IMG/VR virus record: IMGVR_UViG_3300043444_000140
Coordinates: 32,001-96,000 of that record
Origin: a virus
DNA: 64,000 nt
Reading direction: 5' to 3' (one strand)
A program made the translations under genes and the position numbers. Positions within the stretch are counted from its first letter, which is position 1, and every line of letters starts with the position of its first letter. Under the pieces are notes generated by a model. That model did no database searches, was not told the origin of the DNA, and saw nothing but the letters and a program-made list of their open reading frames with translations. Below are positions 7,811 to 63,752 of the stretch, one piece after another.

Positions 7811-10800
7811 ATGCCTAGTCAATCTAACATTTACGCTGAAAAAGTTTACAGCGAACACCCAATATCTTTATGGTCACTGGATGACCAACTTGACTACGTT
7901 TCATATATCTCGGAAGAAAATCGTGACGTGTCTACATGGACTGCATCTGGAAATGACGTAGACATTTCATTGTCCACATTGAACATTGGACAAAAGTTTT
8001 CTAATGGGCTCTACAAGATTGTTGCAACCAAGACAGAACTAGAAAGTTTGTCTGAATTTCGGCTACTTAGTCAAAATATTGTAAATCTGGGAGACCTTGA
8101 CGACACCCTGTCAACCTTCTCCATAGGCTCATACTTCTACTCAGATACTGAGTATGTTAAAAGCATTACTATAGGCTATAGGTATGTTGAAGAAATAACC
8201 AATCAGAATGTCTATGTCACTAAAACGTTTGAGACAAACATCAGTAAAAACTGGATATATCTTGCAGAAACGTTCGACATCCCAAACTACACTAGCAACA
8301 TTCAACTGATAATTGACATCAAATACTACGACAGCGAAGATCCACAAACAGAGTACACCTTTTATGTAAATGGACTAAGTCTTGGTCAATGGTCAGAAGA
8401 GTTCCAATCAGAATCTCTAGGACTGTCGTACAAGAGCGACGGCAGTGGCGAGATTATAGACTTTCCAACTGACATCTCTCTCGATGGTGCGACACAGGCA
8501 GTTGTAGCCTCTGCTTATGGATTGCAGGACAACAAGGGGTATTACCTAGCCACACAAAACAAGATTTACGCAAAAAACTCAGGTTTGCCAATGGTATTTG
8601 GATCTGCAAGCGTAACATCATTGCTGTATAACGAAGCCCTACCATCGCTGATCGTTCCAGGAGAAGGATTTCTGAATAGCGTAGGTAAGTATAACTCCTA
8701 CACATTTGAAGCATGGATGCGTATAGACTCAATATCGGTAGAGGCTCACAGAATTTTTGGTCCACTCGGATCTTTGGATGGTGTCTATGTTGATAACGAA
8801 AGAATTTATTTAAAGATATCTGACACTATCAAGTCTGCCACGGTAACTGAGTGGGGAAGACCATCGCTAGTTCACATCAAGTATACTCCAAACAATGTAG
8901 CCTTAGTAATGAATGCACAGGAAATCATTTCTATTGACATAGATGCAGAAGCCCTATACCTTCCAGAGCAAACAGACGCATTTGGTAGAAGCCAAGACTG
9001 GCTAGGGTTCTACGCCTCAGACGACGTGGCTATTGACGTTGATTGCGTTGGAGTGTACCCATATGAAGTAGACAAGACAATGGCAAAAAGAAGATGGGTC
9101 TATGGTCAAAACGTAGAATACCCAGAAAACTTAAACTCGGCATTTGACGGTAAGACAATTGCCATAGATTATCCTAGAGCAAACTACACAACAAACTTTG
9201 TTTTTCCCAAAAACAGTGCATGGTCTAGAGGTATTTCAGAGAACCTATCATTTGCAAATAATTCTATATCTTCCCCAGTCTACTCTTTGCCAGATGTAGT
9301 TCTCGAAAGCGGATCTCCATCCACATGGCTTGTAGATCAGCAAGACTGCCAGTTCGAATCCGACATGTACTTTAGAATGAAGCCAAATGCAAATTGGCAA
9401 GACGTTGACGGGTATTTGTATCTAGATAGTTTGTCTTTTATTAATAAACCAGTTCGTGCATTGTATGGAATTTTTAAATCGGTTCAAGATGTATCATCAG
9501 AAGAGGTACTATTAAAGTTGAGGGACAAGACCAATGGAAACTCCCTATCTGTAACTGTTCTGGGAAACTCTGTCAAGTATAGTCTTTCATACTTTGGTAC
9601 CGAAACAGTTATAAAGTCGGTAAGCGTTGCAACTATTGGTGAAATGTTTGTTGCTGGTATAGACTTTAAAAAAGTGTCTTCTGCATTTGGACAGAGCCTA
9701 GTGTCGTTCCTTTCAAATCAGAACAACCTAGAACTTTTTATTTGTGGAGACTCCCAGCACGGAAGAGTCTTCTCTGGAAATGTTTATAACATCAGCATAT
9801 CTACCGACAGGAATGCTAGAAGTATTGGGTATATGTTCGGTGGCGACGGTATCGCCATAGACAAAGACTCATTCCTAGAGATTGCATACGATGCAGGAAG
9901 CACATACTTTGGAAACAATCCAGACTACTGGTCAGCACTGCTAGATGGCGGAGACCCATACTCAGTAACCTCAGACGCATTCTTTGCCCACACAGCAACA
10001 TACAAACTATATGCAAAAACATTCTTTGACGAATACAGACTTGACATTGCTACTTCTTCTACCTGGGAAGACTTTGTTCCATTGTCAAACTTTGCTAAGT
10101 ATGTCCAGGACGGCACTGAGGCAAGTTATTATGATCTAGACTTTTTGCAATTCAACATTGGTCACCCTGCCCCAGGAAAATTCATAGAACAAAAGACAAA
10201 AGATGGTGCATGGACATATGCCGAACTTCAAGCAGAATATAATACTCCAGTTCAGTATTCTTATGCAGAATTAGACAACGAACTATTTAGCGGATTTGCG
10301 TCCTACGGAGACTTGCAAAAGAAAACAAGAACTCAGTATGTGTACGATACAGAAAACCTTTCAGTTAGAACATACGTTACTTTTCAGTCGCTCTCTGGTG
10401 GTGCGAACACAACACTTGAGTCATACACAAATACAGAGCGAGTCGGTAGCAACAATCTGGTAAAGGCTGGTGACGAGTGGATAAATACCAAATATGAAGT
10501 AATTGACGGTACAGTTATATATCCACCGAAGTCTGTAAACTTCTATGACCTAGCAATTGTTGTTCACGTGGAAATGGTCTCAGATGGAATTTTGACCAAG
10601 CCAGTAAGGGTAACCACAATAGATCTAACTTCTCAAGCACTTGACGTAAAGTCTCCAAGTCCAATAGGGACAAAGTTTGGAATTCCAATTTATCCATATA
10701 CAAAGAATGGCATCTACTTCAACTATAAGGCAGTAAATCCATTCAAGATCTATAAGCAGAGTACGCCGTACCTATTTTTAAATAGAAGTTCTGGAATCGA

Positions 10801-11542
10801 ACTTGTTGGAGATTTTGAGCCATTGGTAAACCGTGGTCTCACAGTGCCATTAAACCCTAGGGCTTCGTCAAAGTTTAGCGTGTCCGCTATGCAAATGCTT
10901 TTTAAATATAGCAAAGACTACTTCCCGTATTCGTCCACCCCAATCTTTGAGATACAGTCAAAGAATTCCTACATAAAGTTCTATTTGGTAGCAACTCAAC
11001 CAGACGGAAAGAGAGCCAAAATCTATGCAATCAACTCCGAGACTGGGCTAGAAGAAAACGGAATAGCATTTTATATTAATGGAAAACTGGTCAAGAGTCC
11101 TACAATTACCGTTAAAGAATGGGCAATGCTTGGAATTTCTTTTGTCAAAAAACTTAGCCTAGACAGTTATTCTGGAGCCTTTAGGCTTAATGGTCCAATT
11201 ATGGTTAACCACATGTCCTACTACCAGTCAAGTGGATTGCAAGAAAAGATATATACAGCATTCAGAGTTTGGGATCGTGTTAAGGAAAACATTGCGTCTG
11301 AAAGCCTGGACTGGACATTCTGGAAGGGTAGCATTCTTGCTGGTCAAACATACTCCTGGAACAACGTTCTGGTGATTGGAACAAACAGTTTTTTTGGAGT
11401 CAGTCTACCTAACATATATAAGACGTATACAGGAACAAACAAGATAGTCTTTGACGACAATAGCGGAATTGCGTTAAGTAGTTACAGGTTTAGAACCTAT
11501 AGAAAACTATCCCAGACTACATTTACTAAGAAGCCATCATAA
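7811..11542 (+). CDS. large virion structural/minor tail protein with probable LamG/concanavalin-like domains
   Basis: 1243 aa, beta-rich; EHPISLWSLDD and YTFEAWMR motifs; SD AGGAG and TGGTAGAAT upstream. Confidence 0.65.
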   Translation: MPSQSNIYAEKVYSEHPISLWSLDDQLDYVSYISEENRDVSTWTASGNDVDISLSTLNIGQKFSNGLYKIVATKTELESLSEFRLLSQNIVNLGDLDDTLSTFSIGSYFYSDTEYVKSITIGYRYVEEITNQNVYVTKTFETNISKNWIYLAETFDIPNYTSNIQLIIDIKYYDSEDPQTEYTFYVNGLSLGQWSEEFQSESLGLSYKSDGSGEIIDFPTDISLDGATQAVVASAYGLQDNKGYYLATQNKIYAKNSGLPMVFGSASVTSLLYNEALPSLIVPGEGFLNSVGKYNSYTFEAWMRIDSISVEAHRIFGPLGSLDGVYVDNERIYLKISDTIKSATVTEWGRPSLVHIKYTPNNVALVMNAQEIISIDIDAEALYLPEQTDAFGRSQDWLGFYASDDVAIDVDCVGVYPYEVDKTMAKRRWVYGQNVEYPENLNSAFDGKTIAIDYPRANYTTNFVFPKNSAWSRGISENLSFANNSISSPVYSLPDVVLESGSPSTWLVDQQDCQFESDMYFRMKPNANWQDVDGYLYLDSLSFINKPVRALYGIFKSVQDVSSEEVLLKLRDKTNGNSLSVTVLGNSVKYSLSYFGTETVIKSVSVATIGEMFVAGIDFKKVSSAFGQSLVSFLSNQNNLELFICGDSQHGRVFSGNVYNISISTDRNARSIGYMFGGDGIAIDKDSFLEIAYDAGSTYFGNNPDYWSALLDGGDPYSVTSDAFFAHTATYKLYAKTFFDEYRLDIATSSTWEDFVPLSNFAKYVQDGTEASYYDLDFLQFNIGHPAPGKFIEQKTKDGAWTYAELQAEYNTPVQYSYAELDNELFSGFASYGDLQKKTRTQYVYDTENLSVRTYVTFQSLSGGANTTLESYTNTERVGSNNLVKAGDEWINTKYEVIDGTVIYPPKSVNFYDLAIVVHVEMVSDGILTKPVRVTTIDLTSQALDVKSPSPIGTKFGIPIYPYTKNGIYFNYKAVNPFKIYKQSTPYLFLNRSSGIELVGDFEPLVNRGLTVPLNPRASSKFSVSAMQMLFKYSKDYFPYSSTPIFEIQSKNSYIKFYLVATQPDGKRAKIYAINSETGLEENGIAFYINGKLVKSPTITVKEWAMLGISFVKKLSLDSYSGAFRLNGPIMVNHMSYYQSSGLQEKIYTAFRVWDRVKENIASESLDWTFWKGSILAGQTYSWNNVLVIGTNSFFGVSLPNIYKTYTGTNKIVFDDNSGIALSSYRFRTYRKLSQTTFTKKPS

Positions 11543-20226: not shown

Positions 20227-20907
20227 ATGGCTACCGCAATATACAAATCTGCAATAATTGAAACCATTGATCGTGAGGAGATATACATCACTCCACTAAA
20301 AATCAAGTATCTAAGGTTGTTCATGGAAGAATTTGGCAATGTAAGAAAGTCTTCAAATAATGACGATGCCTTCACGTTTGTTTCTAAGTGTGCCCTGATC
20401 GCCATGAAACAGTACAAGCCAGAGATAAAGACAATTGAGCAGGTAGAAGACTCTTTTGACCTAGCAACGCTCTATACAGTTCTTGATATAGCAGCAGGCA
20501 TTAGCATGAAGAGCCCAGAAGACTCTGGAGAAAGTATCCCTGAGCAGGCTAATAGCAAAGAAAACAACTCTTGGGAAACTATAGACCTTGCTAAGTTGGA
20601 GTCAGAGGTGTTCTTGCTGGGTATTTGGAAAGACTATGAGGAACTAGAGTCATCTCTATCAATGCCAGAGTTATCGGAAACTCTCAACGCTAAACGAGAG
20701 CAGTCGTATAATGAAAAGAAGTTTATGGCATCACTCAAGGGTATTGACATTGACGGTGGTAAGCCAGAAGAGAACGCATGGGAAAAACTAAAGAACAAGG
20801 TTATGAATAAGGGTAAAGACTCTAACGACATTACTTCGCTTACTGGAGCAAGGGCTAGAAAAGCAGGCTTTGGTATCGGTATGGGCATGTCGTATGAAAA
20901 ACACTAA
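20227..20907 (+). CDS. tail assembly chaperone, long (GT-like) form
   Basis: Between tail tube and TMP; N-terminal half paralogous to 20962..21276; probably leaderless after TGGTATACT. Confidence 0.7.
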   Translation: MATAIYKSAIIETIDREEIYITPLKIKYLRLFMEEFGNVRKSSNNDDAFTFVSKCALIAMKQYKPEIKTIEQVEDSFDLATLYTVLDIAAGISMKSPEDSGESIPEQANSKENNSWETIDLAKLESEVFLLGIWKDYEELESSLSMPELSETLNAKREQSYNEKKFMASLKGIDIDGGKPEENAWEKLKNKVMNKGKDSNDITSLTGARARKAGFGIGMGMSYEKH

Positions 20908-20961: not shown

Positions 20962-21276
20962 ATGGCAACAACCGTAAATGAAGCAAAGACAGTTACTATG
21001 CTTGACGGAACTAAAATTGAAATTAGACCACTAAAGATCTCTCTTCTTCGTCCATTCATGGACAAGTTCGAGAAGATCGCAGAGGTCGCAGACAATAACT
21101 CAAAATCAATGGACCTTCTTCTAGAATGTGTGGCTATTGCTATGAAGCAGTACAAGCCAGAACTAGCAGAGAAGCCAGCAGACTTGGAAGATCTTCTTGA
21201 CCTTCCAACAGTCTATGAAATTGTGGAGGAAGCATCTGGACTTAAGATTGCCCAGACTGCTGCTACACTACTGTAG
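20962..21276 (+). CDS. tail assembly chaperone, short (G-like) form
   Basis: SD AAGGAGG; own TGTTATAAT at 20926; IRPLKISLLR..IAMKQYKPE. Confidence 0.72.
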   Translation: MATTVNEAKTVTMLDGTKIEIRPLKISLLRPFMDKFEKIAEVADNNSKSMDLLLECVAIAMKQYKPELAEKPADLEDLLDLPTVYEIVEEASGLKIAQTAATLL

Positions 21277-21306: not shown

Positions 21307-24300
21307 ATGGCTGATTCCCAGACTAATATCAATATAAATATTGATACCAGTCAAGCCCTAGCAAACCTGCAGGCTTTGCAGTCTCAGATATCAGCCTTCC
21401 AAACCTCGATGGCTCGTGGCACTGCCACGCAAGCAGCAAACGCTGCCAAACTAAGACAAAACCTAATAAACGACATCAATGCAACTAAAAAGTTTGCAGC
21501 AGGTATCACAGATATCAAGACCACTACAGAGTCGTTTACAACCTCACTTGAGAAAAACAAGTTCTCAATGGGGCAATACTTTAAGTATGCTGGTGGTGCA
21601 ACAAAGAATTTCGGTAAACTATTCAAAACCGAAATGGCAACTATTGATAAGGTTGCTCGTGAACGTGTCAAAGACCTACAGACCCAATACATCCAACTAG
21701 GTCGTGACGCAAACGGTGCCATGAAGGCAATTTCCGTAAGACCACTAGTTCTTGACATGGAAAACCTGGGAACCAAAACAGCCATCGCTGCCCAGAAACA
21801 ACAGATTCTAAACCAACTCCTAAAGCAGGGGTCAACAAACATGCTCAACTGGGGTAAGAACACCCAGTGGGCAGGTCGTCAGTTGATGGTTGGTTTTACA
21901 GTTCCTCTAACTATGGCAGGTACTGCAGCAGCCAAAGCATTCATGGACATGGAGCAGGCTGCAATTAAGTTTAGCAGGGTATACGGAAGTTTTGGAACAA
22001 CTACTAAAGACGTAGACGCAATGGTAGACTCAGTAAAGAGACTAGCCTCCGAGTTTACAAAGTACGGTGTTGCGGTGTCAGACACAATGACCATGGCTGC
22101 AGATGCTGCAGCAGCAGGTAAAGAGGGCGTTGAACTATTAGAGCAGGTAACTAACGCAACCAGGCTTGCAATTCTTGGTAACGTAGATCAGCAACAAGCA
22201 CTGGAAACAACAATGTCTCTAACAAATGCGTTTGGTATTGCTGCAGAAGAACTCACAGGGAAGATCAACTTCCTTAACGCAGTTGAAAACCAAACCGTTA
22301 CCGCCATTGAAGACCTTACAATTGCTATTCCAAAGGCTGCTCCAGTTATTCAGCAACTTGGTGGAGACGTAGAAGACCTAGCATTCTTCCTAACAGCAAT
22401 GAAGGAAGGTGGAATTAACGCATCAGAAGGTGCTAACGCACTTAAGTCTGGTCTTGCATCTTTGATTAATCCAACCAACAAGGCATCTGAGTTCCTGCAG
22501 AGTTTTGGCATTAACGTAAAGAACATCGTTGAGTCAAACATGGGAGACGTTAAGGGTCTAGTTGTTGAGTTTGCATCAGCCCTCGACACCCTAGATCCAC
22601 TAAACCGTGCACGTGCCATCGAACAGATGTTTGGTAAGTTCCAGTTCTCACGTCTATCAACATTGTTCCAGAACGTAATTGACGAGGGTAGCCAGGCAAA
22701 CAAGGTTCTGGGGCTTACAAGGGCAACCTCTGAAGAATTGGCAATCCTATCTGAGCGAGAGTTGAAGAAGGTTGAAAGTTCTCCAATGTTCAAGTTCCAG
22801 AAGTCAATCGAAGACATCAAGGCAAAACTTGTTCCAATTGGAGAAGCATTCCTAAAGGCTATTACTCCTGTTATTGATTTCGTAGGAAAGTTCCTAGACG
22901 GATTTAATAAGATGTCCGAGGGTGCAAAGAGTTTCTGGATTACAACCACAGCAATCCTTGCTGGTGTTGGTCCAGCACTTCTAATGACAGTTGGTCTTGT
23001 TGCTAACGGTATTGCAAACCTTATTAAGATGTTTGCATCTATCAAGTCATTCATTAACAGAACTTCGCAAGATACGAATGCTTTGGGTGAATCAACCTCA
23101 TACATGACCGCAGAGCAGATCAGAGCAGCAGCGGTCGCTGCATCACTTGAGCAGGTACACCAAACCCTAGAACAAAGATTTACATCAGAAGCAGCCTCAG
23201 TAGACAAACTGACGCAGGCTTACGGAAGAAACATCGCAGCACAATCTGCATACAGTAACGCAAACCTTATTCCAACAACTCCAGTTAGGGGTGCAAAGAA
23301 ATTTGCAACTGGTGGATTTGTGTCTGGTCCTGGAACAGGAACGTCGGATTCAATCCCTGCCATGCTGTCAAATGGCGAAGCAGTTATCCCAGCAAAGTCA
23401 GTTGCACAAAACCCTGACCTAGTTAGAGGCTTGATTGCAGGAAACGTTAAGGGTTACTCTCAAGGTGGAATTGCTAATGGCAAGGCGGTCGTAGCCTTTG
23501 GTGCACACCAACCATTCACAGTCGCTCACGAGATGATCGCAAGAATGGGTATGGATATGGCTGCCGAGTCAGGTGCCACATTCAAGCAGTTCTCAACTGC
23601 CCAGGGTAAGTCGAAGAGATCTCTACTCACTGACGACCTAAAGAAGAAACTTATCCAGGAGTCTATTGGTATAACTCCAGACATTACCAAGAACCCATTC
23701 ACCCTGATGGAGTCCCTATCTGCACAAGGTATCAAGGACGTAACCCTACTTCTTGGTCAAGACAGAATGGCTGCTGGAGTATTCGACAAGGCAGCAGCAG
23801 ACTACGGAATTACTCTACGCAAGGTTGCTATCCCTAGAGATCCAGGATCACCATCTGGCACCGAGACAAGACTAGCAATTTCAAACAACAACACCAGAAG
23901 ATATCAGGAACTAATTGCCTCTGGTGCATCTCAGGCGACCAAGGATGAAGTATTTAAGCAGATGAAGTCTGCCATGTCAATGCCAAAGATGGCTAAGGGC
24001 GGTATCGTTTCTGGACCTGGAACAGGAACCTCAGATTCAGTTCCAACTCTGCTATCTCGTGGCGAAGCGGTAATCCCTGCTAAGTCGGTAGCAAGCAATC
24101 CAGAACTAGTAAGAGGACTGATTGCAAATAACATTCCAGGATTCAGCGAAGGCTTTGACTCGACAGGACTAATAAGTGCTGCTATGGCTAAGTATCGTGG
24201 ATCAAAGCCCGAAGTATTCCAGGCTCAGTTTGAAAGAGAACTTGAAGACATTCTCAAAACAACTGGAGATACTCAAACAATGCTACTTGAGCAACTTCAA

Positions 24301-27300
24301 AAGTACGTAGATACAACAAAGACTACTGCAAAAGCAACCATGAAGAGGTTCATGTCTCAAAACGAAGAGCAGGGGAAAAACCTAAGACCGTTATACAACA
24401 GGAAGGCTGCACAACAGGCTGGAGGAGACTTTGCTCACGTAGAAGATAGCAGGGAAGTTTCTGCACAGTATGTTCTAGACAACAGCCCAAACCTTCAGGC
24501 AGGGCACAGAGAGAGACTGGAAAGACTAGTTGCAAATAATCCAGATTATAAGGTTATGGCTGGAAGTGGCTTGGGCTTTACTCAGTCAAATGCACTTAAT
24601 CTAAAAATGAGCAGAGGGAAAAAGAGTGCTCCTGTAGAAGAATTTTTGGCAGATTTTGAATCAAGAGGTGTCGGAAAATGGACCCAGAGTGCTGAGATTG
24701 CTGGTCTTAAGATGGCAGATATTTCTGACGAACTAAAGATTTACGACGACGCACTTGCTGCTGGGGTAAGGCAATGGCAAGGAATGAATCCAACTCTTGA
24801 GTTGACCCAGCAAGAGTTTGCAAACATAGAGCGTAACGTTAGAACAACTATCGCACCACAAATACCAGTTGTCGCTCAGGCTTTTGGAGATCTTGCAAAT
24901 GAACTACATGATCTAAGATACCTTGTGGGAGAAAAGGAATTTGCAGCAACTGGAATTAAGAAGAACCCATATAGACAGTTCCCAAGAAAGGGCAAAAAAT
25001 CCGCAACTGATGCATTGTCTCCAGTGCCACTAAGCGAAATGCCACTAACACTTTCAAATGAATTTGCAGATGAAGCAGCGGTACAGGCACAGACAAAGTC
25101 TCCATCTAAGAGAACACGCAAGGTAGCAAAAGACACTGTTGATGGATACGTTCTTGAACTTGAGAATGGTGAAGCAAGAGTTGCAGAAGCAGCAGCCACA
25201 GCAGAAAAGAAGCGTGGTAAGATGGCTGGCATTGGCGACAAGGCATCTGGGTTCTTTGCAAGAAGAAAGCAACAGGCTGCACTAGACAAGCAGATGGCTG
25301 CAGAAAGAACTGCCATTGCGTCTGAGTTGCTTCTAGCAACCGATAAGGAGTACGGGGCACTTGCTGCACAAAGACAACTCTTAAACAGAAAGGTAACACT
25401 AACTGACGCAGAGTATGCTGACCTATTAAAGACCATCAACTTGATGGGGGTAAAGGAAGCAGAGATTGCTACCGACATCAAGAACAATGGTGCTGAGTCT
25501 AAGGTACTTAAAGAGAGAATTGCCCTTGCTGCAGAACGTGGCATTGCAATTAATGCTGAACAGGCTGCAAACCTAAAGGAACAAAAACTAAGTCGTCGTG
25601 AAAGACTGGGCAACTTCGTCAGGGGTGGTGCTGGAAGAATGTCTGGAATCGGCATGACAGCATCTATGGTTGCTGGCTCATTGACGATGATTCCTGGAGC
25701 AATTGGAGAAATGGCACAGAGCATTACCCCAGTAATTGGTGGCTTGTCTATGATGTCTATGATGATTCAGGGTCCAGTTAGTGCTGGTATCGTAGGACTA
25801 GTCGCTGCCATCGGTGCAGTTGTTTATGGATTTATGCAATACAACGCATCAATTGACAAGGGTATTGACAAGGCTCTTGCATTTGGAGATGCTCTAGGAA
25901 GCGGTACAAAGGCTATGCAGGGCTTGGCAGAGTTTGCTGGTAACGTAACCGCATCAGAAGTCCTAGATAGACGTAGAACTCAGGCTGTAAACCCATATCA
26001 GGTTGTAAGCGGTAAGACGACCTTTGGAGAGTCATACCTAGAGTCTGATGGTGGCAAGGCAATGGCTAAGGCTATCGGAGACCAGGCTAAGGTTTCTGGT
26101 AAGGCTGGCGTTGGTGGAAACATGAAGAACCAACTAGTATCTGCTGTTCTTTCTGGGGCATTGGGTGCAGCACAGGCTAGAAGCATTGCAGTTAATCTTG
26201 GTAGAGAACTTGGCGACGAAGAACTGGGTATTAGAGTTGCTGGAGAAATTGCAGAACTTGTGGGTCCAAATGGAGAAAACGTTCTTAAGGATGGCTTGGC
26301 TATTAGGGTCAAGATGATGCAAGAAACTAGAGGTCAGATTGGAAGTTCTGCAGCAAACCTAAACCAAATGGGTGGCTTTACAGGAACAGAAATGCTTCAG
26401 ACTGGTGGTGGCATCGCAGCAGGTGCAGGTGCTGGAGCCGTTGCAGGTGCAGTGATTGGATCATTCCTTGGACCAATTGGAACTGGTGTTGGGGCTATTG
26501 TCGGAACTATTGCAGGTGGAATCACTGGTGGTCTTCTAGGTGCTCAAGAACATGCAGAACGTCTGGGGTATCTAGCAGGAGCAACCGTATCTATTCAGTC
26601 AACTGCACTAGAGCAACAAAAGCAAATGCTAGACTCTCTAGAACTAGACTACGAGAAGCGTATTGAGGCTGCCAAGGCTGCTGGCGACACCGCAAAGGCA
26701 GATGAACTTCAGAACAAGTTGATTGCTGAAAGACAAAATCTTCTAAAGCAGAACGCACTCACCCAGCAAACAATTACTGATTCGTTTAAGAATTCACAAT
26801 ACCAGAATGAGATGATGGCTGGTGTAGACAAGGCTATCGAGAAAAAGTACAAAGACACCCCAATGGAGGACATCGCCAAGGTCGCAAGAGACAAACTAGG
26901 TGGCATCCAAAATAGAGAACAGCAATTCACCATGAAGATGCTTCTCAATACAAACGTAGATCCATTGCAGATGCTTGCCATTACAGACATCATGGGCACC
27001 GACCAATCAGCAATCTCTAAGGTTCTAAACATTAATGCAAACCTTGGTGGATCAAACCTAAACCAGGTAATGGCAATCTCTGGACTATTTACTGACCAAA
27101 ATGGCAAGCCAGCCACCCAAATTCAAAAAGACTTCATTATCAGGATGTCTTCCGTTACAGACGGAGAGCAAGCAAACAAGTTGATGACTCTATACTCAGA
27201 ACTTGGAAAGTCTGGTATGGGATGGGTAAATGCTTCGGTACTTGTTGACTTTGTATCAAAGAACCCAGCACTCGAAACCAAGTTGATGAATGATATCCAA

Positions 27301-30003
27301 GAGATCAAAGATCTTCGAGGCAATAAACTTTCAGTAGACATTGTGTCAAAGGCAAGTATCTTGAATGCAGACGAGATGGCAATCCTTAGAGATGACATGG
27401 AGTACTTCAATAGCATTGACACTAAAGAAGGACAACAACTATACTTGCAGACCGTTGCAACATATTCTGGAGTTGCAAAGATTGATGACCCAGGATTCCA
27501 GTCTTGGCTAGCAGCCGAGGGTAAGGCGTACAGGGCAGACTCTTATGGATGGATCAAGTATGTAGAGTGGCTAGCACAGAGAGCAACCAACACGAGAATT
27601 GGTGCCAATGCCTTTGCAAAGGACCCTAACGATACTCCTAGCAGCACAAGCAGTGGTCCATCAGCATCTTGGCTAGACGATTACGTTAAGGGCGTTAGAG
27701 ACCTAACAAATGCTTCTCAGGGTCTAACAGTTGGCTATGCAGCCTCGGCAAAGGCTTTAGATGCTTTTGCAAAGAAGAGTTCAAGTTTTAAGAATTCATT
27801 TAATGGTCTTGCCAATAACCTATATGCCTCTGGTATTAGCCAGGACATCATTGACAACATTCTTGGTATGCCAAAGGAAGAAGCCGAAAAAGAAATGAAG
27901 CGATTCTTTGACAAGAATGGCAAGGTAACAGAATTCCTAAAGAGGCTTCAAAAAACAGCAGCAATCACCAGAATTGCCAAAACAGTAGAGTCTGGACTGC
28001 AGTCAACAAGGTCAATCTATGACAGGGTGGATGCAACAAAGGCACTAGCCCTAGGCAATAAGAACGCAGCACTAACCTCAGAAATGCTTGCTGATTCAGA
28101 TATGGTTGTTGCCCTTGCAGGTGTAAAACTTATTGGCAACCTAAAGGATCAGAAGGATGCTGTAGAGAAGTTGACCAAGGCAAAACTTGCAAGCCTTGCT
28201 ATGGACAGACTGTCTAAGGGTAAGACTCAGAACGAAATTGATGATGCTCAAATCAAGATTGACGTTCTAGAGGCTGAAAACAACATCTACCAAAATGGAC
28301 TAGACATTATTTCCAAGAAGGCAGAAAAGATTGCAGAAGTTTACGATCGCCAAATCAAGGCACTCCAAGAGGTAAAGTCTGTAAACGACGAAATTTCAAG
28401 ACAAAAGCAGGGCGAACTAGACATTGCGGATGCACTATCTCGTGGTGACATTGGTGCTGCTGCAAAGGCTGCCCAACAACTAAGAGCACAAAATGCACAG
28501 GCTGCTGCAGAGGCACAAATGAAGGCTCTAGAAGATGCAAAGCAGAGAGCAATGGACTCAATAACTGTAGAGATTAATGGTCAAAAACTAACAAGAGCAG
28601 ACCTTGAGCAGAAGATGTATGATATCCAACTCCAGGTTCTTGAGATTAGAAAAGACGAAATTGTTCAAAACGAACTAATTCTTGCACAACAAAGACAAAG
28701 TTTAAACAGCCTTATTGCTCAAACAGCAGAGCAGATTAAGAGAAATGCTGAAGCAGGCAAGCCAATTACCCAAACCATTACTAAGGTCATTAAGACTGTC
28801 AGTTCTGGTAGTGGTGGCAATGGCGGAGGAAATCCAAATACAACTAATAACAACGATCCAAAAACAGAACTACCAACAACAATAACTCCACCAACCGCCA
28901 AGAGTTTGCTTGGTATTGGAACAAGCAAAGCAAAAGACTCGTCAGTAATTAAGAGCATGGATCCAAAAACAAGCAGTGACAAAGCCATCAAGGACTTTGG
29001 AACATTGTTTGCCGAAGGAGATAAGAGTGGGTTCACAAACTATGCAACAGATGCGATTGCCAAGCGAGCACTAAGTGCAGACAAGTATAAGGACTGGAAA
29101 GCATGGTTTGAAAAGTATTCTGCAGCAGAGACCATGGTCTCTTCGCTATACGGTACGAATGCAAAGACTGTTCTTGGAAGCATTAAAACTGGAACAAGAA
29201 ACAAAGAAAATATTAACAATATTGCTACAAGCATGTACAATGCTTATGGTGCCAAAGTAACAGGGGAGCAAAAAACCGAAGGCTTTGCAGACCTGTCTCC
29301 AGAACTTCGTGGAGCACTTAACTATCTGGTAACCCTAAATAGCAGTTTCCAGGCAAACAAGCAAGAACTTGCAACCGCTACAAGCACCATTAAGGGTTAT
29401 AAGTCAGCATATGAAAAGATTGACAGTCTTGCATCTATGAGAAAAACCTGGAGTGACGCTAAGGGTGCAGCAAAGAAGAATACAGAATATCAAAAACTAA
29501 TAGATGCTTATGGAGCATCCTTCGATTCAGATGTTCAGAAATACCTAACTTCTAGCAACTTGATGAAGCAAAATGTGTCCAACGCATATTCAACCAGGAA
29601 AGCACTGATAGACGCAAAATACAAAGAGTCAGACTTTTCTTGGATTCCAGGATACTTCTCTGGAATTGTGACACAAAACCCTGCATACAATGCAGATGTG
29701 AATAAGATTATTCCATCTAAGATTAAGTACTACTCTGTAGGAGATCTTGCAAAGGGCACCGACGTTGTCCCTGCAATGCTAACACCAGGTGAGTTTGTGG
29801 TCACTCAGCCAGCAGTTAAGAACTTTGGGGTAGACAATCTAAGGGCAATCAATAGTGGCACCTACGGCGGAGATTCAGTGTATAATTATAGTGTCAATGT
29901 AAATGTCTCTAATACAGGTGCTAATGCAAATGATATTGCCAGAACCGTAATGACACAGATTAAGCAAATTGACGCACAAAGACTTAGGAGCAACAATCTA
30001 TAA
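21307..30003 (+). CDS. tape measure protein (2898 aa) with internal cargo domains
   Basis: Follows the chaperones; TMP core (WAGRQLMVGFT, NFLNAVENQT, EGANALKSGLASL); hydrophobic segments; GPGTGTSDS/PAMLTPGEFV motifs. Confidence 0.93.
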   Translation: MADSQTNININIDTSQALANLQALQSQISAFQTSMARGTATQAANAAKLRQNLINDINATKKFAAGITDIKTTTESFTTSLEKNKFSMGQYFKYAGGATKNFGKLFKTEMATIDKVARERVKDLQTQYIQLGRDANGAMKAISVRPLVLDMENLGTKTAIAAQKQQILNQLLKQGSTNMLNWGKNTQWAGRQLMVGFTVPLTMAGTAAAKAFMDMEQAAIKFSRVYGSFGTTTKDVDAMVDSVKRLASEFTKYGVAVSDTMTMAADAAAAGKEGVELLEQVTNATRLAILGNVDQQQALETTMSLTNAFGIAAEELTGKINFLNAVENQTVTAIEDLTIAIPKAAPVIQQLGGDVEDLAFFLTAMKEGGINASEGANALKSGLASLINPTNKASEFLQSFGINVKNIVESNMGDVKGLVVEFASALDTLDPLNRARAIEQMFGKFQFSRLSTLFQNVIDEGSQANKVLGLTRATSEELAILSERELKKVESSPMFKFQKSIEDIKAKLVPIGEAFLKAITPVIDFVGKFLDGFNKMSEGAKSFWITTTAILAGVGPALLMTVGLVANGIANLIKMFASIKSFINRTSQDTNALGESTSYMTAEQIRAAAVAASLEQVHQTLEQRFTSEAASVDKLTQAYGRNIAAQSAYSNANLIPTTPVRGAKKFATGGFVSGPGTGTSDSIPAMLSNGEAVIPAKSVAQNPDLVRGLIAGNVKGYSQGGIANGKAVVAFGAHQPFTVAHEMIARMGMDMAAESGATFKQFSTAQGKSKRSLLTDDLKKKLIQESIGITPDITKNPFTLMESLSAQGIKDVTLLLGQDRMAAGVFDKAAADYGITLRKVAIPRDPGSPSGTETRLAISNNNTRRYQELIASGASQATKDEVFKQMKSAMSMPKMAKGGIVSGPGTGTSDSVPTLLSRGEAVIPAKSVASNPELVRGLIANNIPGFSEGFDSTGLISAAMAKYRGSKPEVFQAQFERELEDILKTTGDTQTMLLEQLQKYVDTTKTTAKATMKRFMSQNEEQGKNLRPLYNRKAAQQAGGDFAHVEDSREVSAQYVLDNSPNLQAGHRERLERLVANNPDYKVMAGSGLGFTQSNALNLKMSRGKKSAPVEEFLADFESRGVGKWTQSAEIAGLKMADISDELKIYDDALAAGVRQWQGMNPTLELTQQEFANIERNVRTTIAPQIPVVAQAFGDLANELHDLRYLVGEKEFAATGIKKNPYRQFPRKGKKSATDALSPVPLSEMPLTLSNEFADEAAVQAQTKSPSKRTRKVAKDTVDGYVLELENGEARVAEAAATAEKKRGKMAGIGDKASGFFARRKQQAALDKQMAAERTAIASELLLATDKEYGALAAQRQLLNRKVTLTDAEYADLLKTINLMGVKEAEIATDIKNNGAESKVLKERIALAAERGIAINAEQAANLKEQKLSRRERLGNFVRGGAGRMSGIGMTASMVAGSLTMIPGAIGEMAQSITPVIGGLSMMSMMIQGPVSAGIVGLVAAIGAVVYGFMQYNASIDKGIDKALAFGDALGSGTKAMQGLAEFAGNVTASEVLDRRRTQAVNPYQVVSGKTTFGESYLESDGGKAMAKAIGDQAKVSGKAGVGGNMKNQLVSAVLSGALGAAQARSIAVNLGRELGDEELGIRVAGEIAELVGPNGENVLKDGLAIRVKMMQETRGQIGSSAANLNQMGGFTGTEMLQTGGGIAAGAGAGAVAGAVIGSFLGPIGTGVGAIVGTIAGGITGGLLGAQEHAERLGYLAGATVSIQSTALEQQKQMLDSLELDYEKRIEAAKAAGDTAKADELQNKLIAERQNLLKQNALTQQTITDSFKNSQYQNEMMAGVDKAIEKKYKDTPMEDIAKVARDKLGGIQNREQQFTMKMLLNTNVDPLQMLAITDIMGTDQSAISKVLNINANLGGSNLNQVMAISGLFTDQNGKPATQIQKDFIIRMSSVTDGEQANKLMTLYSELGKSGMGWVNASVLVDFVSKNPALETKLMNDIQEIKDLRGNKLSVDIVSKASILNADEMAILRDDMEYFNSIDTKEGQQLYLQTVATYSGVAKIDDPGFQSWLAAEGKAYRADSYGWIKYVEWLAQRATNTRIGANAFAKDPNDTPSSTSSGPSASWLDDYVKGVRDLTNASQGLTVGYAASAKALDAFAKKSSSFKNSFNGLANNLYASGISQDIIDNILGMPKEEAEKEMKRFFDKNGKVTEFLKRLQKTAAITRIAKTVESGLQSTRSIYDRVDATKALALGNKNAALTSEMLADSDMVVALAGVKLIGNLKDQKDAVEKLTKAKLASLAMDRLSKGKTQNEIDDAQIKIDVLEAENNIYQNGLDIISKKAEKIAEVYDRQIKALQEVKSVNDEISRQKQGELDIADALSRGDIGAAAKAAQQLRAQNAQAAAEAQMKALEDAKQRAMDSITVEINGQKLTRADLEQKMYDIQLQVLEIRKDEIVQNELILAQQRQSLNSLIAQTAEQIKRNAEAGKPITQTITKVIKTVSSGSGGNGGGNPNTTNNNDPKTELPTTITPPTAKSLLGIGTSKAKDSSVIKSMDPKTSSDKAIKDFGTLFAEGDKSGFTNYATDAIAKRALSADKYKDWKAWFEKYSAAETMVSSLYGTNAKTVLGSIKTGTRNKENINNIATSMYNAYGAKVTGEQKTEGFADLSPELRGALNYLVTLNSSFQANKQELATATSTIKGYKSAYEKIDSLASMRKTWSDAKGAAKKNTEYQKLIDAYGASFDSDVQKYLTSSNLMKQNVSNAYSTRKALIDAKYKESDFSWIPGYFSGIVTQNPAYNADVNKIIPSKIKYYSVGDLAKGTDVVPAMLTPGEFVVTQPAVKNFGVDNLRAINSGTYGGDSVYNYSVNVNVSNTGANANDIARTVMTQIKQIDAQRLRSNNL
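23302..24156 (+). repeat. two 56-aa direct repeats inside the TMP (23302-23469 and 23989-24156); degenerate third copy near 29731-29859
   Basis: 41 of 56 residues identical by manual alignment. Confidence 0.9.
23482..23975 (+). other. HIGH-superfamily nucleotidyltransferase (cytidyltransferase-like) domain embedded in the TMP
   Basis: VVAFGAHQPFTVAH, L..KKKLI, GIKDVTLLLGQDR and SGTETR motifs in the canonical order. Confidence 0.75.
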
Positions 30004-30661: not shown

Positions 30662-33600
30662 ATGTTTTATGATGCAAAACTACAAGAACACCTGGAGACA
30701 TCTTCTTCAGTAAAGAATAAATCGCTAATCGTTGCCGAATGGAACATGAATATTCCAGACAACATTTCTATGGTGGGCAACTATCGCTATAGAAAAGACT
30801 CAGCCACATACAGGTTTCTTCCAGTACAGTTTTTGGAAAATGATCCAGCCCACAAAGGTGCGACTCTATCAGACGTAGTTGTTGACAACGGATTTGACGT
30901 TGACGATAACCCAATTCAATTCTCTTCTGCAGACAAGAAAGAAAGTTTCTATTACTCGCTTGACGAGTGTCTTGGCAAGTTTCGTCCACGCTCTGGAATT
31001 AACAAGGTAAGGTTCTTTGGACAGGATTCGGGCGTACACTTTCTAAATGGAACAACAGAAAATGGCTTGGGTCAGTCATTCCTTGACACGAATAGACCAA
31101 GATACTATGCTCCAGATAAGGGAGATAAGTTTAAGTACTGGACATCATTTAGATTTGAAAGTGGACTAGAGTATGGAGTAGCCAATAAGGCTATAGCAGG
31201 ATCTGCGGAGTACAAGATTGACGATGCAGTGCCATTTGTTGTATACAAAGACAGTGTTCCTGCAAACAGGGTAGTTGTCAAGATGCAAACAAATGTGGGA
31301 ACCGTTACTGTTGGACCAGTATTGACAGAGCAGGGAACCATTCCAGACCCACTATATGGAATAAGCAACGCAACTGTGCCAGTTAGATGGAAGATTCAAG
31401 GTCTAGTAGGCAACAACTGGGAAGATCTAAAGTCCTTTGATTCTAACTCTATTAGAAGAAGCGGTAAACCAATCATCGGTGAAGATGGATATGTAGAACT
31501 ATCGTATGGATTGATTGTGCCAGAAGAATATAGGGATATCTTTATTCAGGCAGAGACATATTATACTGCATCAGTGCTACCAATTAAGGCTGTCAACGGG
31601 TACGCATACCTGATTAAGAATTCTCTAGACGATGTAGGGACATACCACATCTGGATTGATGATGCACAAGAGTACAAGACGTTTGTTCCAAAGTACGGTT
31701 GGGAAGTTGCAGAAGAGACTGTAGACAGATTCACACACTACGTAGTTGACACAACCAATCCAGACAACTTTAAGGACACTACTAATCAGTTTAGAAAGAC
31801 ATTCAGAGAGTACCAAGAACTTCGTGGAATTAGAATTGTGGTAGACTCTATGAAAAAGTTTGACTCTACCTTCGACCTAATTGAGATGTCTACACGCCTA
31901 GCAGTAAACATAACCGAAAAGACAAAGAGCGTATCTGTTAAGAAGATAGCGTCCGATCTAGGAATTAGCGGTCTTCCTGTTGGACAACTATTAGCATCTA
32001 CGGGAACGATAGAAATATTTGATTATGATGATGCTTTTAATAGAAACAACATCTATAATATTGACACAAATACAAGCGGAAGTATTATTGCAAAGTATGC
32101 AGCAAATCAAATTCAATTTAAGATTTATGATGTCACGGCAGAAGTCTTGGAAAACGGCATCTACTACGACTACTTTGTTCCCATTAAGACGCTGTACGGC
32201 GACGGATTCCCACAACTAAATGTAGAGTCTAGGTCTGTCAATATCAACCTAAGAGACATGTTCTCATACTTTGAGTCGTTTACCGCACCACAGATATTAG
32301 CCACAGACGCTTCCCTGAGTTATGCCGTATCCTTCTTGCTAGATAGCATTGGCTTTGGAAATTATGTATTTAAGAGAACTGCCTCAGAGTCAGAGCCAAT
32401 CATTCCATTCTTTTATGTAGAGCCAGATGTAACTGTTGCAGACATCCTCAACGAACTTGCCAGATCTACCCAGACCGCAATGTTCTTTGACGAGTACAAC
32501 AACTTTGTCATGATGTCAAAAAACTATATGCTCCCAAGTGCTTCCGACAGAGGGCAAGATCTCACTCTTTATGGATCAGCAGACTCTGCAAGAAATGGGG
32601 TAGAGAGAAACGCAAAAACTAAGAGCAAACTAGCGAATATTATTAGTATTGCAAGCCAAGACACGGAGGTTTACAATGATGGAAAGATTAATTTTACAAC
32701 CAGATATATTCAAAAGTCATACTCTTCAATTGAGCAGGCTAACAAACTAGACCGTGACAAGAAGTGGACGTACAAGCCTTCCTTGCTATGGGAGGTATCT
32801 CCTTCAGAGGCAACCAAGGGTCAGAACGAAGAAGATGGATCTCTATCAGTCTACTCACTTACGGCAATACCACTCAAGACCGACCTATCTGAGGCACTTC
32901 CAAAGGTAAACAACAAGGGTGAAATCATTAACAATATAATTGACTTTGGCGATGCAGCATTCTGGATGGGAAGATACGCAGGATACTTCTACGCCAATGG
33001 TGAAATTATTAGGTACGACGCAGTAGAGTATTCAGTTCTAGGTGGAGGTGCTTCAACTGCGTGGATTAGCAGCCTAGAAGAGTATCAGTACTACTTCTCA
33101 AAGATTCCTTTTAATGGCAAGATGTATCCGACAGGAAGAGTTAGAATCTATGCAAAGCCATTCTATAGCAAAGAGACAGGTCTGCCACTACAAGACAATG
33201 TCGAGGTCCATGGTCGTGGTCAATTTGGTACCTCTGTTGTAGCACACAAGGCAGGCATCTCTGGTTCAGAGTGGACTACAAATGTTTCTGGAGTCACAAT
33301 GGACGCTGACTATATCTTCAGTGCCATCGGAAACTTCCAACTCAGAGATGGGTACGTGCCATACAAGGCAACTATTCCATTGCAGTTCTTTGGATCTGGA
33401 TCAAACAACTGGACGCTATCTGGTCCAGGTACGCTGTCAAAGACATCTGGAACAGCGGTTGGGGCATCTACAGACTCTTCTGTATCAACAAACATAAGAA
33501 GCGAAAAGGAGCATAGTTACTCTTTGTCAATCGCTGGCACAAAAGTCTACGAGGTATCTCAAAAACTGAAGGACCAGTACAACGTTGACAATAAGACATT

Positions 33601-63007: not shown

Positions 63008-63080
63008 TCCTCCTTAACTCAGTTGGTAGAGTGTTCGGCTGTTAACCGAAATGTCGTTGGTTCGAGTCCAGCAGGAGGAG
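63008..63080 (+). tRNA. tRNA-Asn(GTT)
   Basis: Full cloverleaf; anticodon at 63041-63043; CCA not encoded. Confidence 0.95.
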
Positions 63081-63083
63081 CAA

Positions 63084-63270
63084 TAGGGGTCGCACCCCTA
63101 GGAGGCTGATATACCTTCGTAAACGTATATTCGGTTTGACTAAGCATACCGAGATCCTAATAGACTGGGATTCTAAAAGTTTTAGCGTTGGCTCTATGAA
63201 CCTTTGTAGAGACGTTTTACTGGTAGCGAAATTACTAGTCGGTGAGCAGAGGTCGCTAACTTTGGCTCAC
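63084..63270 (+). ncRNA. candidate structured ncRNA
   Basis: Seven consecutive hairpins and two possible pseudoknot pairings. Confidence 0.5.
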
Positions 63271-63274
63271 AACT

Positions 63275-63341
63275 GGATAGGTAGTTTAATGGCAAAACTG
63301 CAAGGAACGGCAAGTTGGGAGTTCGAATCTCCCTCTATCCA
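63275..63341 (+). ncRNA. tRNA-like element with a truncated anticodon arm
   Basis: Intact acceptor, D and T arms; D-to-T region 18 nt instead of about 23. Confidence 0.7.
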
Positions 63342-63345
63342 CAAA

Positions 63346-63516
63346 CAGTAGTCTCCTTCTGGAATGGGAGTTCTCGCTTCACTACGAGGCTGCTGGGAAA
63401 TAGCCTGCCTGCAGGAAGGGCTATTTTTAAATGGGTTAGTGCTGTTTCTAATGATGGCTACTTGCAAGGCTAACCTCCCGACAGTCGGGCGAATCCGAAG
63501 GGGCGATATCCTCGGT
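63346..63516 (+). ncRNA. candidate structured ncRNA(s)
   Basis: Two multi-branch stems and additional hairpins. Confidence 0.4.
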
Positions 63517-63519
63517 CCA

Positions 63520-63593
63520 GGCTTCATAGTTCAGTTGGTTAGAACGCCACCCTGTCACGGTGGAGGTCAGGGGTTCAAGTCCCCTTGGAGTCG
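63520..63593 (+). tRNA. tRNA-Asp(GTC)
   Basis: Full cloverleaf; anticodon at 63554-63556. Confidence 0.95.
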
Positions 63594-63643
63594 CTAATGG
63601 TTTCCATGCACCACTCTTCGGGTATAAGATAAAGCATGGACAC

Positions 63644-63716
63644 GCCCTTGTAACTCAGTTGGTAGAGTGCGATACTTGTAATATCGAAGTCGCAGGTTCG
63701 AATCCTGTCGGGGGCT
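63644..63716 (+). tRNA. tRNA-Thr(TGT)
   Basis: Full cloverleaf; anticodon at 63677-63679. Confidence 0.95.
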
Positions 63717-63752
63717 CATGTAGTATAATGGAACAAAAGGGAGGTCATAATT

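Follow-up and report, generated by a model that had tools for sequence, protein, structure and literature searches.

Tape measure proteins (TMPs) are usually viewed as rulers and channel formers with no enzymatic additions other than peptidoglycan-cutting ones. TMPs with embedded muralytic domains include those of mycobacteriophages, with Rpf-like and M23-like motifs, and pb2 of T5. These domains act on peptidoglycan outside the membrane and do so without an NTP. One published precedent exists for a cytoplasmic enzyme brought in by a TMP, namely gp96 of the Thermus phage P23-45, a 5,002-aa TMP with an N-terminal virion RNA polymerase, for which a role at the entry pore, preceding the expression of phage genes, has been proposed (PMC10770324). 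Large proteins with interchangeable effector domains, which enter together with DNA or through a tail-like apparatus, are also found among the polyvalent proteins (Iyer et al. 2017, PMC5512222) and in Sle1 of Actinobacteria, which is a TMP-related modular CIS effector or cargo and not a phage tail ruler (PMC13277306). The article on polyvalent proteins mentions neither TMPs nor HIGH nucleotidyltransferases (PMC5512222), and our literature search returned no description of a TMP that contains a nucleotidyltransferase. HIGH nucleotidyltransferases do occur in phages as the "cytitidyltransferase" family (PF01467; phrog_3041; T4-GC_534 of the T4-like cyanophages P-HM2, S-PM2 and S-MbCM100), whose members are encoded by separate myovirus genes and often occur as N-terminal domains in longer proteins of phages. 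For the cyanophages S-CREM2 and S-SZBM1, proteomes of purified virions included a cytidylyltransferase with such an annotation (PMC10665884, PMC9146016).

We analyzed a window of 64,000 nucleotides (positions 32,001 to 96,000 of the IMG/VR record IMGVR_UViG_3300043444_000140) from a phage genome of ~107 kb, the record being 99% complete. The source is an uncultured freshwater phage whose host most likely belongs to Actinomycetota, to which a WhiB gene in the genome and the similarity of its TMP to those of Streptomyces and Gordonia phages (~31% identity to the annotated proteins) give clues. The features of the TMP gene are as follows.

21307..30003, + strand: TMP gene, a single ORF of 2898 aa
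21307..23301, + strand: conserved N-terminal scaffold, aa 1-665, with colinearity kept in every full-length relative
22930-23040, + strand: hydrophobic segment within the scaffold, aa 542-578, from hydropathy
23302..23469, + strand: repeat R1, aa 666-721, a 56-aa TMP motif (hmmsearch E 3e-30)
23479..23979, + strand: predicted HIGH-superfamily nucleotidyltransferase domain, aa 725-891, bounded by the predicted fold and structural matches
23500..23529, + strand: putative nucleotide-binding signature G732-A-H-Q-P-F-T738-V-A-H741, of the (H/T)xxH type
23755..23766, + strand: G817-Q-D819-R820, GxDR motif
23854..23871, + strand: S850-G-T-E-T-R855, SxTxxR putative phosphate-binding motif
23989..24156, + strand: repeat R2, aa 895-950, right after the enzyme domain (hmmsearch E 4e-27)
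24157..25206, + strand: variable region, a possible second payload, aa 951-1300, kept only in the closest relatives (dN/dS 0.32)
25648..26547, + strand: hydrophobic glycine-zipper segments, aa 1448-1514 and aa 1700-1747, from hydropathy
29728..29868, + strand: diverged repeat R3, aa 2808-2854, close to the C-terminus (hmmsearch E 9e-8)

Judged by its sequence and position, the ORF is a genuine phage tail TMP, as the first-pass annotation had it, because PF10145 matched aa 249-443 (E 4.6e-25), ten tape-measure PHROGs covered aa 8-720 (best E 4.5e-97) and the gene lies in a tail module with the order portal, protease, capsid, Ig-domain tail protein, two chaperone-like paralogs, TMP and minor tail protein. 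The scaffold belongs to a family of more than 5127 giant TMPs at E<=1e-20. The Pfam scan also placed a Gly-zipper match (PF13488) at aa 1706-1751, and the composition count gave no cysteine among the 2898 residues. The variable region at aa 951-1300 had no Pfam or PHROG match, and the ESM Atlas offered a weak lead to LPD39 (score 0.86).

The stretch 23482-23975 (+) is stop-free and encodes KAVVAFGAHQPFTVAHEMIA, SLLTDDLKKKLIQ, KNPFTLMESLSAQGIKDVTLLLGQDRM and PSGTETRLAISNNN, corresponding to TMP aa 726-889. About 165 residues had been read here as a complete HIGH nucleotidyltransferase, and the predicted fold at aa 725-891 agrees with this span to within a few residues. The AlphaFold model of the domain (pLDDT 90.9, pTM 0.85) alternates strands and helices, with six short strands and seven helices, and has the Rossmann-like alpha/beta fold of the HIGH superfamily. 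The first-pass annotation was to be given up if no such fold appeared; the Foldseek search that it had proposed instead returned NMNAT, PPAT, NadD and FAD synthetase at probability 1.0. The best VIA structural match was PPAT (Z 14.5, rmsd 2.7, 150 of ~157 residues), and because NadM (Z 13.6) and NadD (Z 13.5) are tied with it within ~1 Z unit, the structure does not single out one substrate. The domain shares its compact fold of ~160 residues with CoaD/PPAT, NadM, NadD and NMNAT1, its T-x-x-H with PPAT and eukaryotic NMNAT, and its SxTxxR is equivalent to their ISxTxxR. However, its identity to CoaD/PPAT and the NMN/NaMN adenylyltransferases is 9-17%, and those enzymes are free-standing and oligomeric, whereas the domain is an insert in a structural protein.

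Motifs of the GxFxPx(H/T)xGH, GxD and SxTxxR types had been noticed in this order, and all three were present and conserved in the relatives. The G, T and H of the nucleotide-binding signature were invariant in stand-alone relatives and embedded copies alike (alignments A2 and A3 and a 24-copy alignment), as were the S, T and R of SxTxxR in the stand-alone and embedded alignments. GxDR was invariant in the stand-alone alignment A1 and at least 90% conserved in the embedded copies, with P0013 as the sole exception. The window domain retained nine of the nine invariant columns of the stand-alone family, and the motifs were held across 24 aligned embedded copies down to 37% identity. The TVAH of the signature had been called atypical. 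We had to correct this point, because TxxH is the norm for the stand-alone family, for PPAT and for eukaryotic NMNAT: TxGH occurs in all stand-alone relatives, PPAT 3pxu has T-R-G-H and the eukaryote-type NMNAT 9rpk has T-F-M-H. On the strength of the model, aa 725-891 are predicted to form a complete HIGH-superfamily nucleotidyltransferase domain, and it is probably catalytically active.

A phmmer search with the domain against 1.84 billion representatives gave 38 matches, including the stand-alone proteins P0019 (E 2e-7) and P0015 (E 8e-8). Both exceed the PF01467 cut-off of 21 (30.7 and 25.7 bits, respectively), whereas the domain itself reaches no Pfam or NCBIfam threshold, and PF01467 gave no match at E<=1 in P0001 or P0002 and none in the genome scan. 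The membership of the domain in PF01467 is therefore transitive. P0015 is linked to 474 phage records, mostly cyanophage "cytitidyltransferase", phrog_3041 ("cytidyltransferase") matched the domain at E 1.4e-7, and the cyanophage cytitidyltransferases in BFVD matched it with TM ~0.8 and E 1e-12 to 1e-9. These matches place the domain in the uncharacterized phage "cytitidyltransferase" branch of PF01467, in line with the kinship to stand-alone cytidyltransferase-like proteins proposed at first sight. The family is the nearest described one to the domain (phmmer E 1e-10 to 1e-4) and shares the TxxH, GxDR and SxTxxR signature, albeit at only 22-30% identity, and its members are separate genes instead of parts of a TMP. 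Moreover, the stand-alone GRxNPPTxGH has shifted to GAHQPFTxAH in the embedded clade, with three positions altered.

More distant searches returned little. Neither phmmer against the PDB nor blastn or tblastn searches of 50,697 phage records matched the domain, none of its domain-bearing relatives stems from a cultured phage, and a word-indexed homologue search at similar length found nothing for it. The profile of alignment A1 gave weak PDB matches only (E 1e-3 to 1e-2), to FMN adenylyltransferase, PPAT and NMNAT. P0010 (237 aa), considered as a candidate free-standing gene of the embedded type, was not located in a scan of viral contigs, and the genome scan found no second copy of the domain or other PF01467 gene elsewhere in the 99%-complete genome.

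The domain is bracketed by two copies of a 56-aa motif, common among TMPs, with the core GTSDS-IPAMLS-GEAVIPA. R1 and R2 are 73% identical in amino acids and 67% in DNA, and the final repeat of most relatives stops 38-84 residues short of the C-terminus. By tblastn the motif occurred in 915 phage records, of which the 30 listed have it in annotated TMPs or in unnamed "hypothetical" or "coil containing" proteins. A monomer model of R1, domain and R2 gave the repeats a pLDDT <60 and did not show them packing on each other or on the domain; we therefore make no claim on the repeat fold. The position of the embedded domain varied from aa 716 to 1417 across TMPs, always adjoining a repeat, and a repeat started within -6 to +4 residues of the domain end in 23 of 34 domain-bearing TMPs (hmmsearch). 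At 12 of 12 IMG/VR loci, the domain lay inside open frames of 1917 to >4224 aa.

Among the 120 nearest scaffold relatives, 19 (~16%) contained the domain, and the scaffold tree requires at least nine gains or losses of it. In other scaffold relatives the cargo was instead a HAD phosphatase, an IMPase-like domain or LysM; the cassettes adjoin the 56-aa motif, and among the proteins examined the nucleotidyltransferase and a full HAD domain never occurred in the same protein. As its flanks and distribution indicate, the domain is a modular cassette between two 56-residue motif copies, in the variable region that follows the N-terminal scaffold. This very large TMP family has several interchangeable cassettes, of which the domain is one, an aspect that the first-pass annotation had overlooked.

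The dN/dS ratio was 0.11 for the domain and 0.10 for the scaffold (vs L001), as opposed to 0.32 for the variable regions, so the domain is under purifying selection as strong as that on the scaffold. Short minus-strand ORFs at 23526-23735 and 23931-24134 were dismissed as genes because they overlap the plus-strand frame under dN/dS 0.11.

A complete and conserved enzyme domain in a TMP means that infection may bring a preformed phage enzyme into the host. We consider the best overall explanation, at a probability of roughly 55%, to be that the domain is a HIGH nucleotidyltransferase cassette of the TMP that is delivered to act on a small metabolite. The TMP in the tail lumen would exit the tail before the DNA, and the cassette, lying between the hydrophobic segments at aa 542-578 and 1448-1514, would fold or refold once past the single host membrane, in the cytoplasm. 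It could there transfer a nucleotide from ATP or CTP to a small phosphorylated metabolite before phage gene expression starts, with NMN/NaMN or phosphopantetheine as candidate types of acceptor. PPAT is a 32-symmetric hexamer and the TMP is usually a trimer, and this analogy suggests that the domain might form a trimer. That the cassette is present in the mature virion and reaches the cytoplasm is possible, although we put it at somewhat below even odds. Two points count against delivery: a folded domain of ~20 kDa, in three or more copies, is expected to be a tight fit in the lumen of the tail tube, and in most phages N-proximal TMP parts are not known to reach the cytoplasm.

The comparison with described delivery systems shows both likenesses and differences. 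As in the muralytic TMPs, an enzyme domain is inserted in a TMP, while delivery at infection, a feature of those proteins, would here be by extension. A HIGH nucleotidyltransferase needs ATP or CTP and therefore the cytoplasm. Like gp96 of P23-45, this protein is a giant TMP with a cytoplasm-type, NTP-using enzyme, although the RNA polymerase of gp96 is at the extreme N-terminus and experimentally shown, whereas we describe a predicted small metabolite-type enzyme that is internal, repeat-bounded and swappable. The polyvalent proteins combine several effectors with an MPTase peptidase, whereas this TMP has one recognizable enzyme domain and no MPTase-type peptidase.

We weighed other explanations against delivery of a metabolite-modifying enzyme. 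The domain could be non-catalytic, serving as a robust nucleotide-binding fold whose refolding or ligand binding beyond the membrane ratchets the TMP out, or which adds regulated bulk or length. That related TMPs carry, as alternatives, small and mutually unrelated alpha/beta domains (HIGH nucleotidyltransferase, HAD, IMPase-like) would fit such a role, as would the lack of any examined protein with both the nucleotidyltransferase and a full HAD domain, and the three changed signature positions of the embedded clade. Conservation of ligand-binding residues would be expected here too. However, the catalytic T and H, GxDR and SxTxxR are retained over deep divergence, dN/dS is 0.11 over the whole domain, and the P23-45 polymerase, the only characterized TMP-fused cytoplasmic-type domain, is catalytic (PMC10770324). 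We thus regard a purely mechanical role as unlikely.

A more specific proposal, given as an example in the first-pass annotation, is that the phage injects an NMN/NaMN adenylyltransferase with which NAD+ is restored in the face of NAD-depleting defences. Pathways by which phages reconstitute NAD are established (PMC13464706), and NadM and NadD are structurally tied with PPAT. A faint hint also comes from the stand-alone relatives, since the sub-threshold NCBIfam matches of 15 members of alignment A1 tilt to NMN/NaMN adenylyltransferase models (TIGR00482 6, NF002243 5, NadM-Nudix 4), with CoaD matched once (E 0.014). Against this, the window domain matches none of the NCBIfam models, including NMNAT and coaD, and its top structural match is PPAT. 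Furthermore, an NMNAT by itself is unable to remake NAD+ from ADP-ribose and nicotinamide, and of the possible partners, which also include a PnuC-type transporter and a ribosylnicotinamide kinase, the two searched for, NAMPT (PF04095) and Nudix (PF00293), are absent from the 99%-complete genome. NAD rescue consequently retains the leaning of the stand-alone relatives and lacks these partners, and we find it distinctly improbable. Taken together, the observation that opened this analysis is confirmed and its interpretation is partly supported.

Some TMPs, such as lambda gpH and T5 pb2, are proteolytically processed. The giant ORF could likewise be a polyprotein, from which the cassette, bracketed as it is by repeat motifs, is excised at the repeats, either inside the cell that makes the phage or while the tail is being assembled, working there or being discarded, and so would be missing from the virion. 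For polyvalent proteins, cleavage upon deployment has been suggested (PMC5512222). Yet scans of this TMP and nine relatives revealed no peptidase domain, hundreds of ordinary TMPs have a single copy of this motif with nothing to release, and a late metabolic enzyme would be of no obvious use in a cell near lysis, which makes excision very unlikely. Finally, chance motifs in low-complexity tape measure sequence, which the lack of a direct Pfam, NCBIfam or PDB sequence match might suggest, are refuted as the source of the resemblance by the confident AlphaFold model with its full-length superposition on PPAT, by Foldseek and BFVD, and by significant phmmer and PHROG matches with invariant motif columns.

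Beyond the delivery of a nucleotidyltransferase cassette by this one phage, we tentatively propose a broader reading, which we hold to be more doubtful. The giant TMPs of a very abundant group of freshwater actinobacterial phages, with thousands of variants, might be a modular effector-injection platform, in which motif-bounded slots hold swappable cytoplasm-type enzymes (HIGH nucleotidyltransferase, HAD phosphatase, IMPase-like). These would pass through the tail before the DNA and target host pools of nucleotides or cofactors, or a defence signal, while phage genes are still silent. If so, no metabolite-modifying enzyme other than this nucleotidyltransferase would yet be known to take such a route. 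A conserved nucleotidyltransferase exchangeable with phosphatases on one scaffold in thousands of environmental phages would make tail delivery ahead of expression a common strategy. It would also provide a handle on the function of the widespread phage "cytitidyltransferase" family, on the passage of folded domains through the tail tube, and on early takeover or anti-defence in freshwater Actinomycetota, whose phages have barely been cultured.

The strings reported by the first-pass annotation, which had proposed that the tape measure protein (TMP) carries a complete HIGH-superfamily nucleotidyltransferase, are the exact translation of window 23482-23975 (+), free of stops and part of one long ORF. 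The only opposite-strand ORFs within this span (67-69 aa) were dismissed as noise because they overlap a strongly constrained plus-strand frame. The features concerned are as follows.

Window 21307-30003, plus strand: TMP, single ORF of 2898 aa
Window 23482-23975, plus strand: nucleotidyltransferase domain, TMP aa 726-889
TMP aa 666-721: R1, first copy of a 56-aa motif
TMP aa 895-950: R2, second copy
TMP aa 2808-2854: R3, diverged copy
TMP aa 951-1300, window 24157-25206: second non-scaffold region, directly after R2
TMP aa 542-578, aa 1448-1514 and aa 1700-1747: hydrophobic segments (hydropathy)
P0060 aa 1030-1154: HAD cargo in a sister TMP
P0137 aa 2039-2124 and P0168 aa 2321-2364: other non-nucleotidyltransferase domains in sister TMPs (IMPase-like, LysM)
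G000:C1:98416-98589 (locus L004), beyond the window: gene of the WhiB family, scoring over the Pfam cut-off

The host ORF is identified by its sequence as a tape measure protein, as the first-pass annotation had it. PF10145 (PhageMin_Tail) matched aa 249-443 (E 4.6e-25), ten tape measure-annotated PHROG families span aa 8-720 (best E 4.5e-97), and over its first 570 residues the protein shares ~31% identity with Streptomyces and Gordonia phage proteins annotated as TMPs. The gene sits in a tail module: portal, head protease and capsid genes come before it, as do those for an Ig-domain tail protein and a pair of chaperone-like paralogs, and a minor tail protein of 1835 aa is encoded after it. 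Both adjacent genes just upstream (window 20227-20907 and 20962-21276) share phrog_10504 at the N-terminus and look like tail-chaperone paralogs, separately encoded rather than produced by frameshift. Upstream of the portal gene, a 1243-aa ORF (window 7811-11542) had no PHROG match at E<=1e-5, and a cluster of three tRNA genes (Asn-GTT, Asp-GTC, Thr-TGT) lies at window 63008-63717. The source, a virus contig from IMG/VR, is 107,035 bp long and rated 99% complete; the window takes up its bases 32001-96000. The WhiB-family gene marks the phage as a predicted actinophage and, taken with a GC content of ~43%, points to a freshwater, single-membrane host among the low-GC Actinomycetota.

Searches with the domain alone against Pfam, NCBIfam and PDB sequences returned no matches; phrog_3041 ('cytidyltransferase') matched it with E 1.4e-7. 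A phmmer search of 1.84 billion representatives gave 38 matches, 11 of which were embedded copies in giant proteins or fragments (39-78% identity), the remainder being proteins of 170-1620 aa with 24-35% identity. PF01467 was matched at E<=0.01 by nine of ten tested non-embedded relatives, eight of them above the family threshold. When the domain was aligned with 14 short relatives, nine columns proved invariant, all kept in the window domain: G, T and H in the first motif, an L, the G-D-R, and the last motif's S and R. An AlphaFold2 model built on the short-relative alignment (pLDDT 90.9, pTM 0.85) has strands alternating with helices, and Foldseek against the PDB retrieved HIGH-family enzymes exclusively at probability 1.0 (NMNAT1, PPAT, NadD, NadM and FAD synthetase). 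VIA-align gave Z 14.5 for PPAT (rmsd 2.7 Å, 150 of ~157 residues), 13.6 for NadM and 13.5 for NadD. On this model, we regard as certain that the fold of the insert (aa 725-891) is that of a complete HIGH-superfamily nucleotidyltransferase, in agreement with the initial proposal.

The nearest family is that of the phage cytitidyltransferases, an uncharacterised group. Among viral models, the best were cyanophage 'cytitidyltransferases' (P-HM2, S-PM2, S-RIM2 and others; E 1e-12 to 1e-9, TM ~0.8), and P0015, a direct phmmer match to the domain, retrieved 474 phage records, mostly from Synechococcus and Prochlorococcus phages and annotated 'cytitidyltransferase'. Synechococcus phage S-MbCM100 encodes tandem 'cytidyltransferase' paralogs of 385 and 510 aa (L008:5764-8458), each with an N-terminal nucleotidyltransferase domain and a long uncharacterised C-terminal extension. 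An ORF of 690 aa on a different IMG/VR contig (L002:8258-10330) has collagen triple-helix repeats; its final stretch shares 34% identity with the C-terminal half of the domain, and its product may be another structural protein with part of this fold.

That the TMP domain is an NMN/NaMN adenylyltransferase rebuilding NAD+ against NADase defences seems improbable to us. Among the stand-alone relatives, NCBIfam matches below threshold leaned to NMN/NaMN adenylyltransferase models over CoaD or TagD; the window domain itself matched none of these models. NAMPT and Nudix were not found in the 99%-complete genome, and an NMNAT could not by itself convert the products of NADase defences to NAD+.

The view that the TVAH motif is atypical did not hold up: every stand-alone relative has T-x-G-H, and in profile alignments the equivalent site reads T-R-G-H in one PPAT (3pxu) and T-F-M-H in one eukaryote-type NMNAT (9rpk). 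GAHQPFTxAH, where stand-alone relatives read GRxNPPTxGH, is a hallmark fixed in nearly all embedded copies. The 24 aligned embedded copies keep the signature, the GK(S/A)KR loop, LLGxDRM and PR...S(G/A)TxxR down to ~37% identity, with the exception of P0013, a single deep branch that has lost DR. In comparison with locus L001 (86% identical), the domain has a dN/dS of 0.11 (165 codons, dS 0.62); the value is 0.10 in the scaffold (the conserved aa 1-665), 0.08-0.12 in the repeats and 0.32-0.33 in variable regions. By these ratios, the domain is maintained by selection.

Comparative sequence analysis identifies the domain as a cassette of a modular TMP family that is very large. The N-terminal scaffold retrieved more than 5,127 proteins of 1,600-5,000 aa at E<=1e-20, and 19 of the 120 best matches carried the nucleotidyltransferase. 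In many sister TMPs, PF03767 (HAD class-B acid phosphatase) takes the place of the nucleotidyltransferase after the scaffold, and single ones have an inositol-monophosphatase (IMPase)-like domain or LysM in its stead. The nucleotidyltransferase occurred in 21 of 83 full-length proteins and a full HAD domain in about two dozen, never both together in this biased, phylogenetically non-independent sample. In 12 of 12 IMG/VR loci, the domain is part of an open frame, 1,917 to >4,224 aa in length; none of the domain-carrying relatives found came from a cultured phage. Its presence requires at least nine changes on the scaffold tree (shuffle mean 18.9) and its identity correlates only moderately with scaffold identity (rho 0.57), which together fit repeated gain, loss or exchange. 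TMP aa 951-1300 is fast-evolving (dN/dS 0.32) and conserved in the closest relatives only; it had no Pfam or PHROG match, and the ESM Atlas gave a weak lead to 'large polyvalent protein associated domain 39'.

Among carriers, the domain is placed anywhere between aa 716 and 1417, always downstream of the motif near aa 681. A repeat begins -6 to +4 residues from the domain end in 23 of 34 carriers and terminates <=17 residues ahead of the domain in 16 of 34. R1 and R2 share 73% identity at the protein level and 67% at the DNA level. The flanking repeat appears from its distribution to be a general TMP motif: tblastn matched it in 915 records from cultured phages, those of Mycobacterium, Gordonia, Pseudomonas and Vibrio among them, and the carriers among the 30 matches listed were annotated TMPs or unnamed proteins, usually with one copy per record. 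A Casadabanvirus has the motif close to the C-terminus, and mycobacteriophage Leston has it at an internal position. Within the window TMP family, the copy number is two to four in most proteins; one copy is usually found near aa 681, and the final one mostly ends 38-84 residues before the C-terminus. The motif modelled as a monomer with low confidence, and no peptidase domain accompanied the repeat in the window TMP or the nine relatives scanned.

A complete, constrained HIGH nucleotidyltransferase is thus established as part of the TMP polypeptide, and our literature search found no published report of such an arrangement. The nearest systems are TMPs with muralytic domains and the TMP-enzyme fusion of P23-45, the latter being the published precedent for the mechanism proposed below; the model put forward there has the N-terminal RNA polymerase of gp96 located at the TMP pore and transcribing pre-early genes (PMC10770324). 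In two virion proteomes (PMC10665884, PMC9146016), purified cyanophage particles contained very few enzymes, one of them annotated as a cytidylyltransferase. Modular TMP-like CIS effectors are known from Actinobacteria (PMC13277306); a survey of polyvalent proteins mentions neither TMPs nor HIGH nucleotidyltransferases (PMC5512222).

We infer, at odds of roughly two in three, that the TMP domain is catalytic. A catalytic role would require the cytoplasm, since the chemistry uses ATP or CTP. The cassette lies between the hydrophobic segment at aa 542-578 and those at aa 1448-1514 and aa 1700-1747, and a glycine zipper matched aa 1706-1751 (Pfam). The 2898-aa TMP contains no cysteine, and most of its giant relatives among the open frames of IMG/VR loci have 0-1. 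The hydrophobic segments and the lack of cysteine are compatible with tail passage and membrane insertion. The TMP would pass through the tail and insert into the single host membrane with the cassette stretch on the inner side, so that the virion might, as we tentatively propose, deliver the nucleotidyltransferase to the host cytoplasm.
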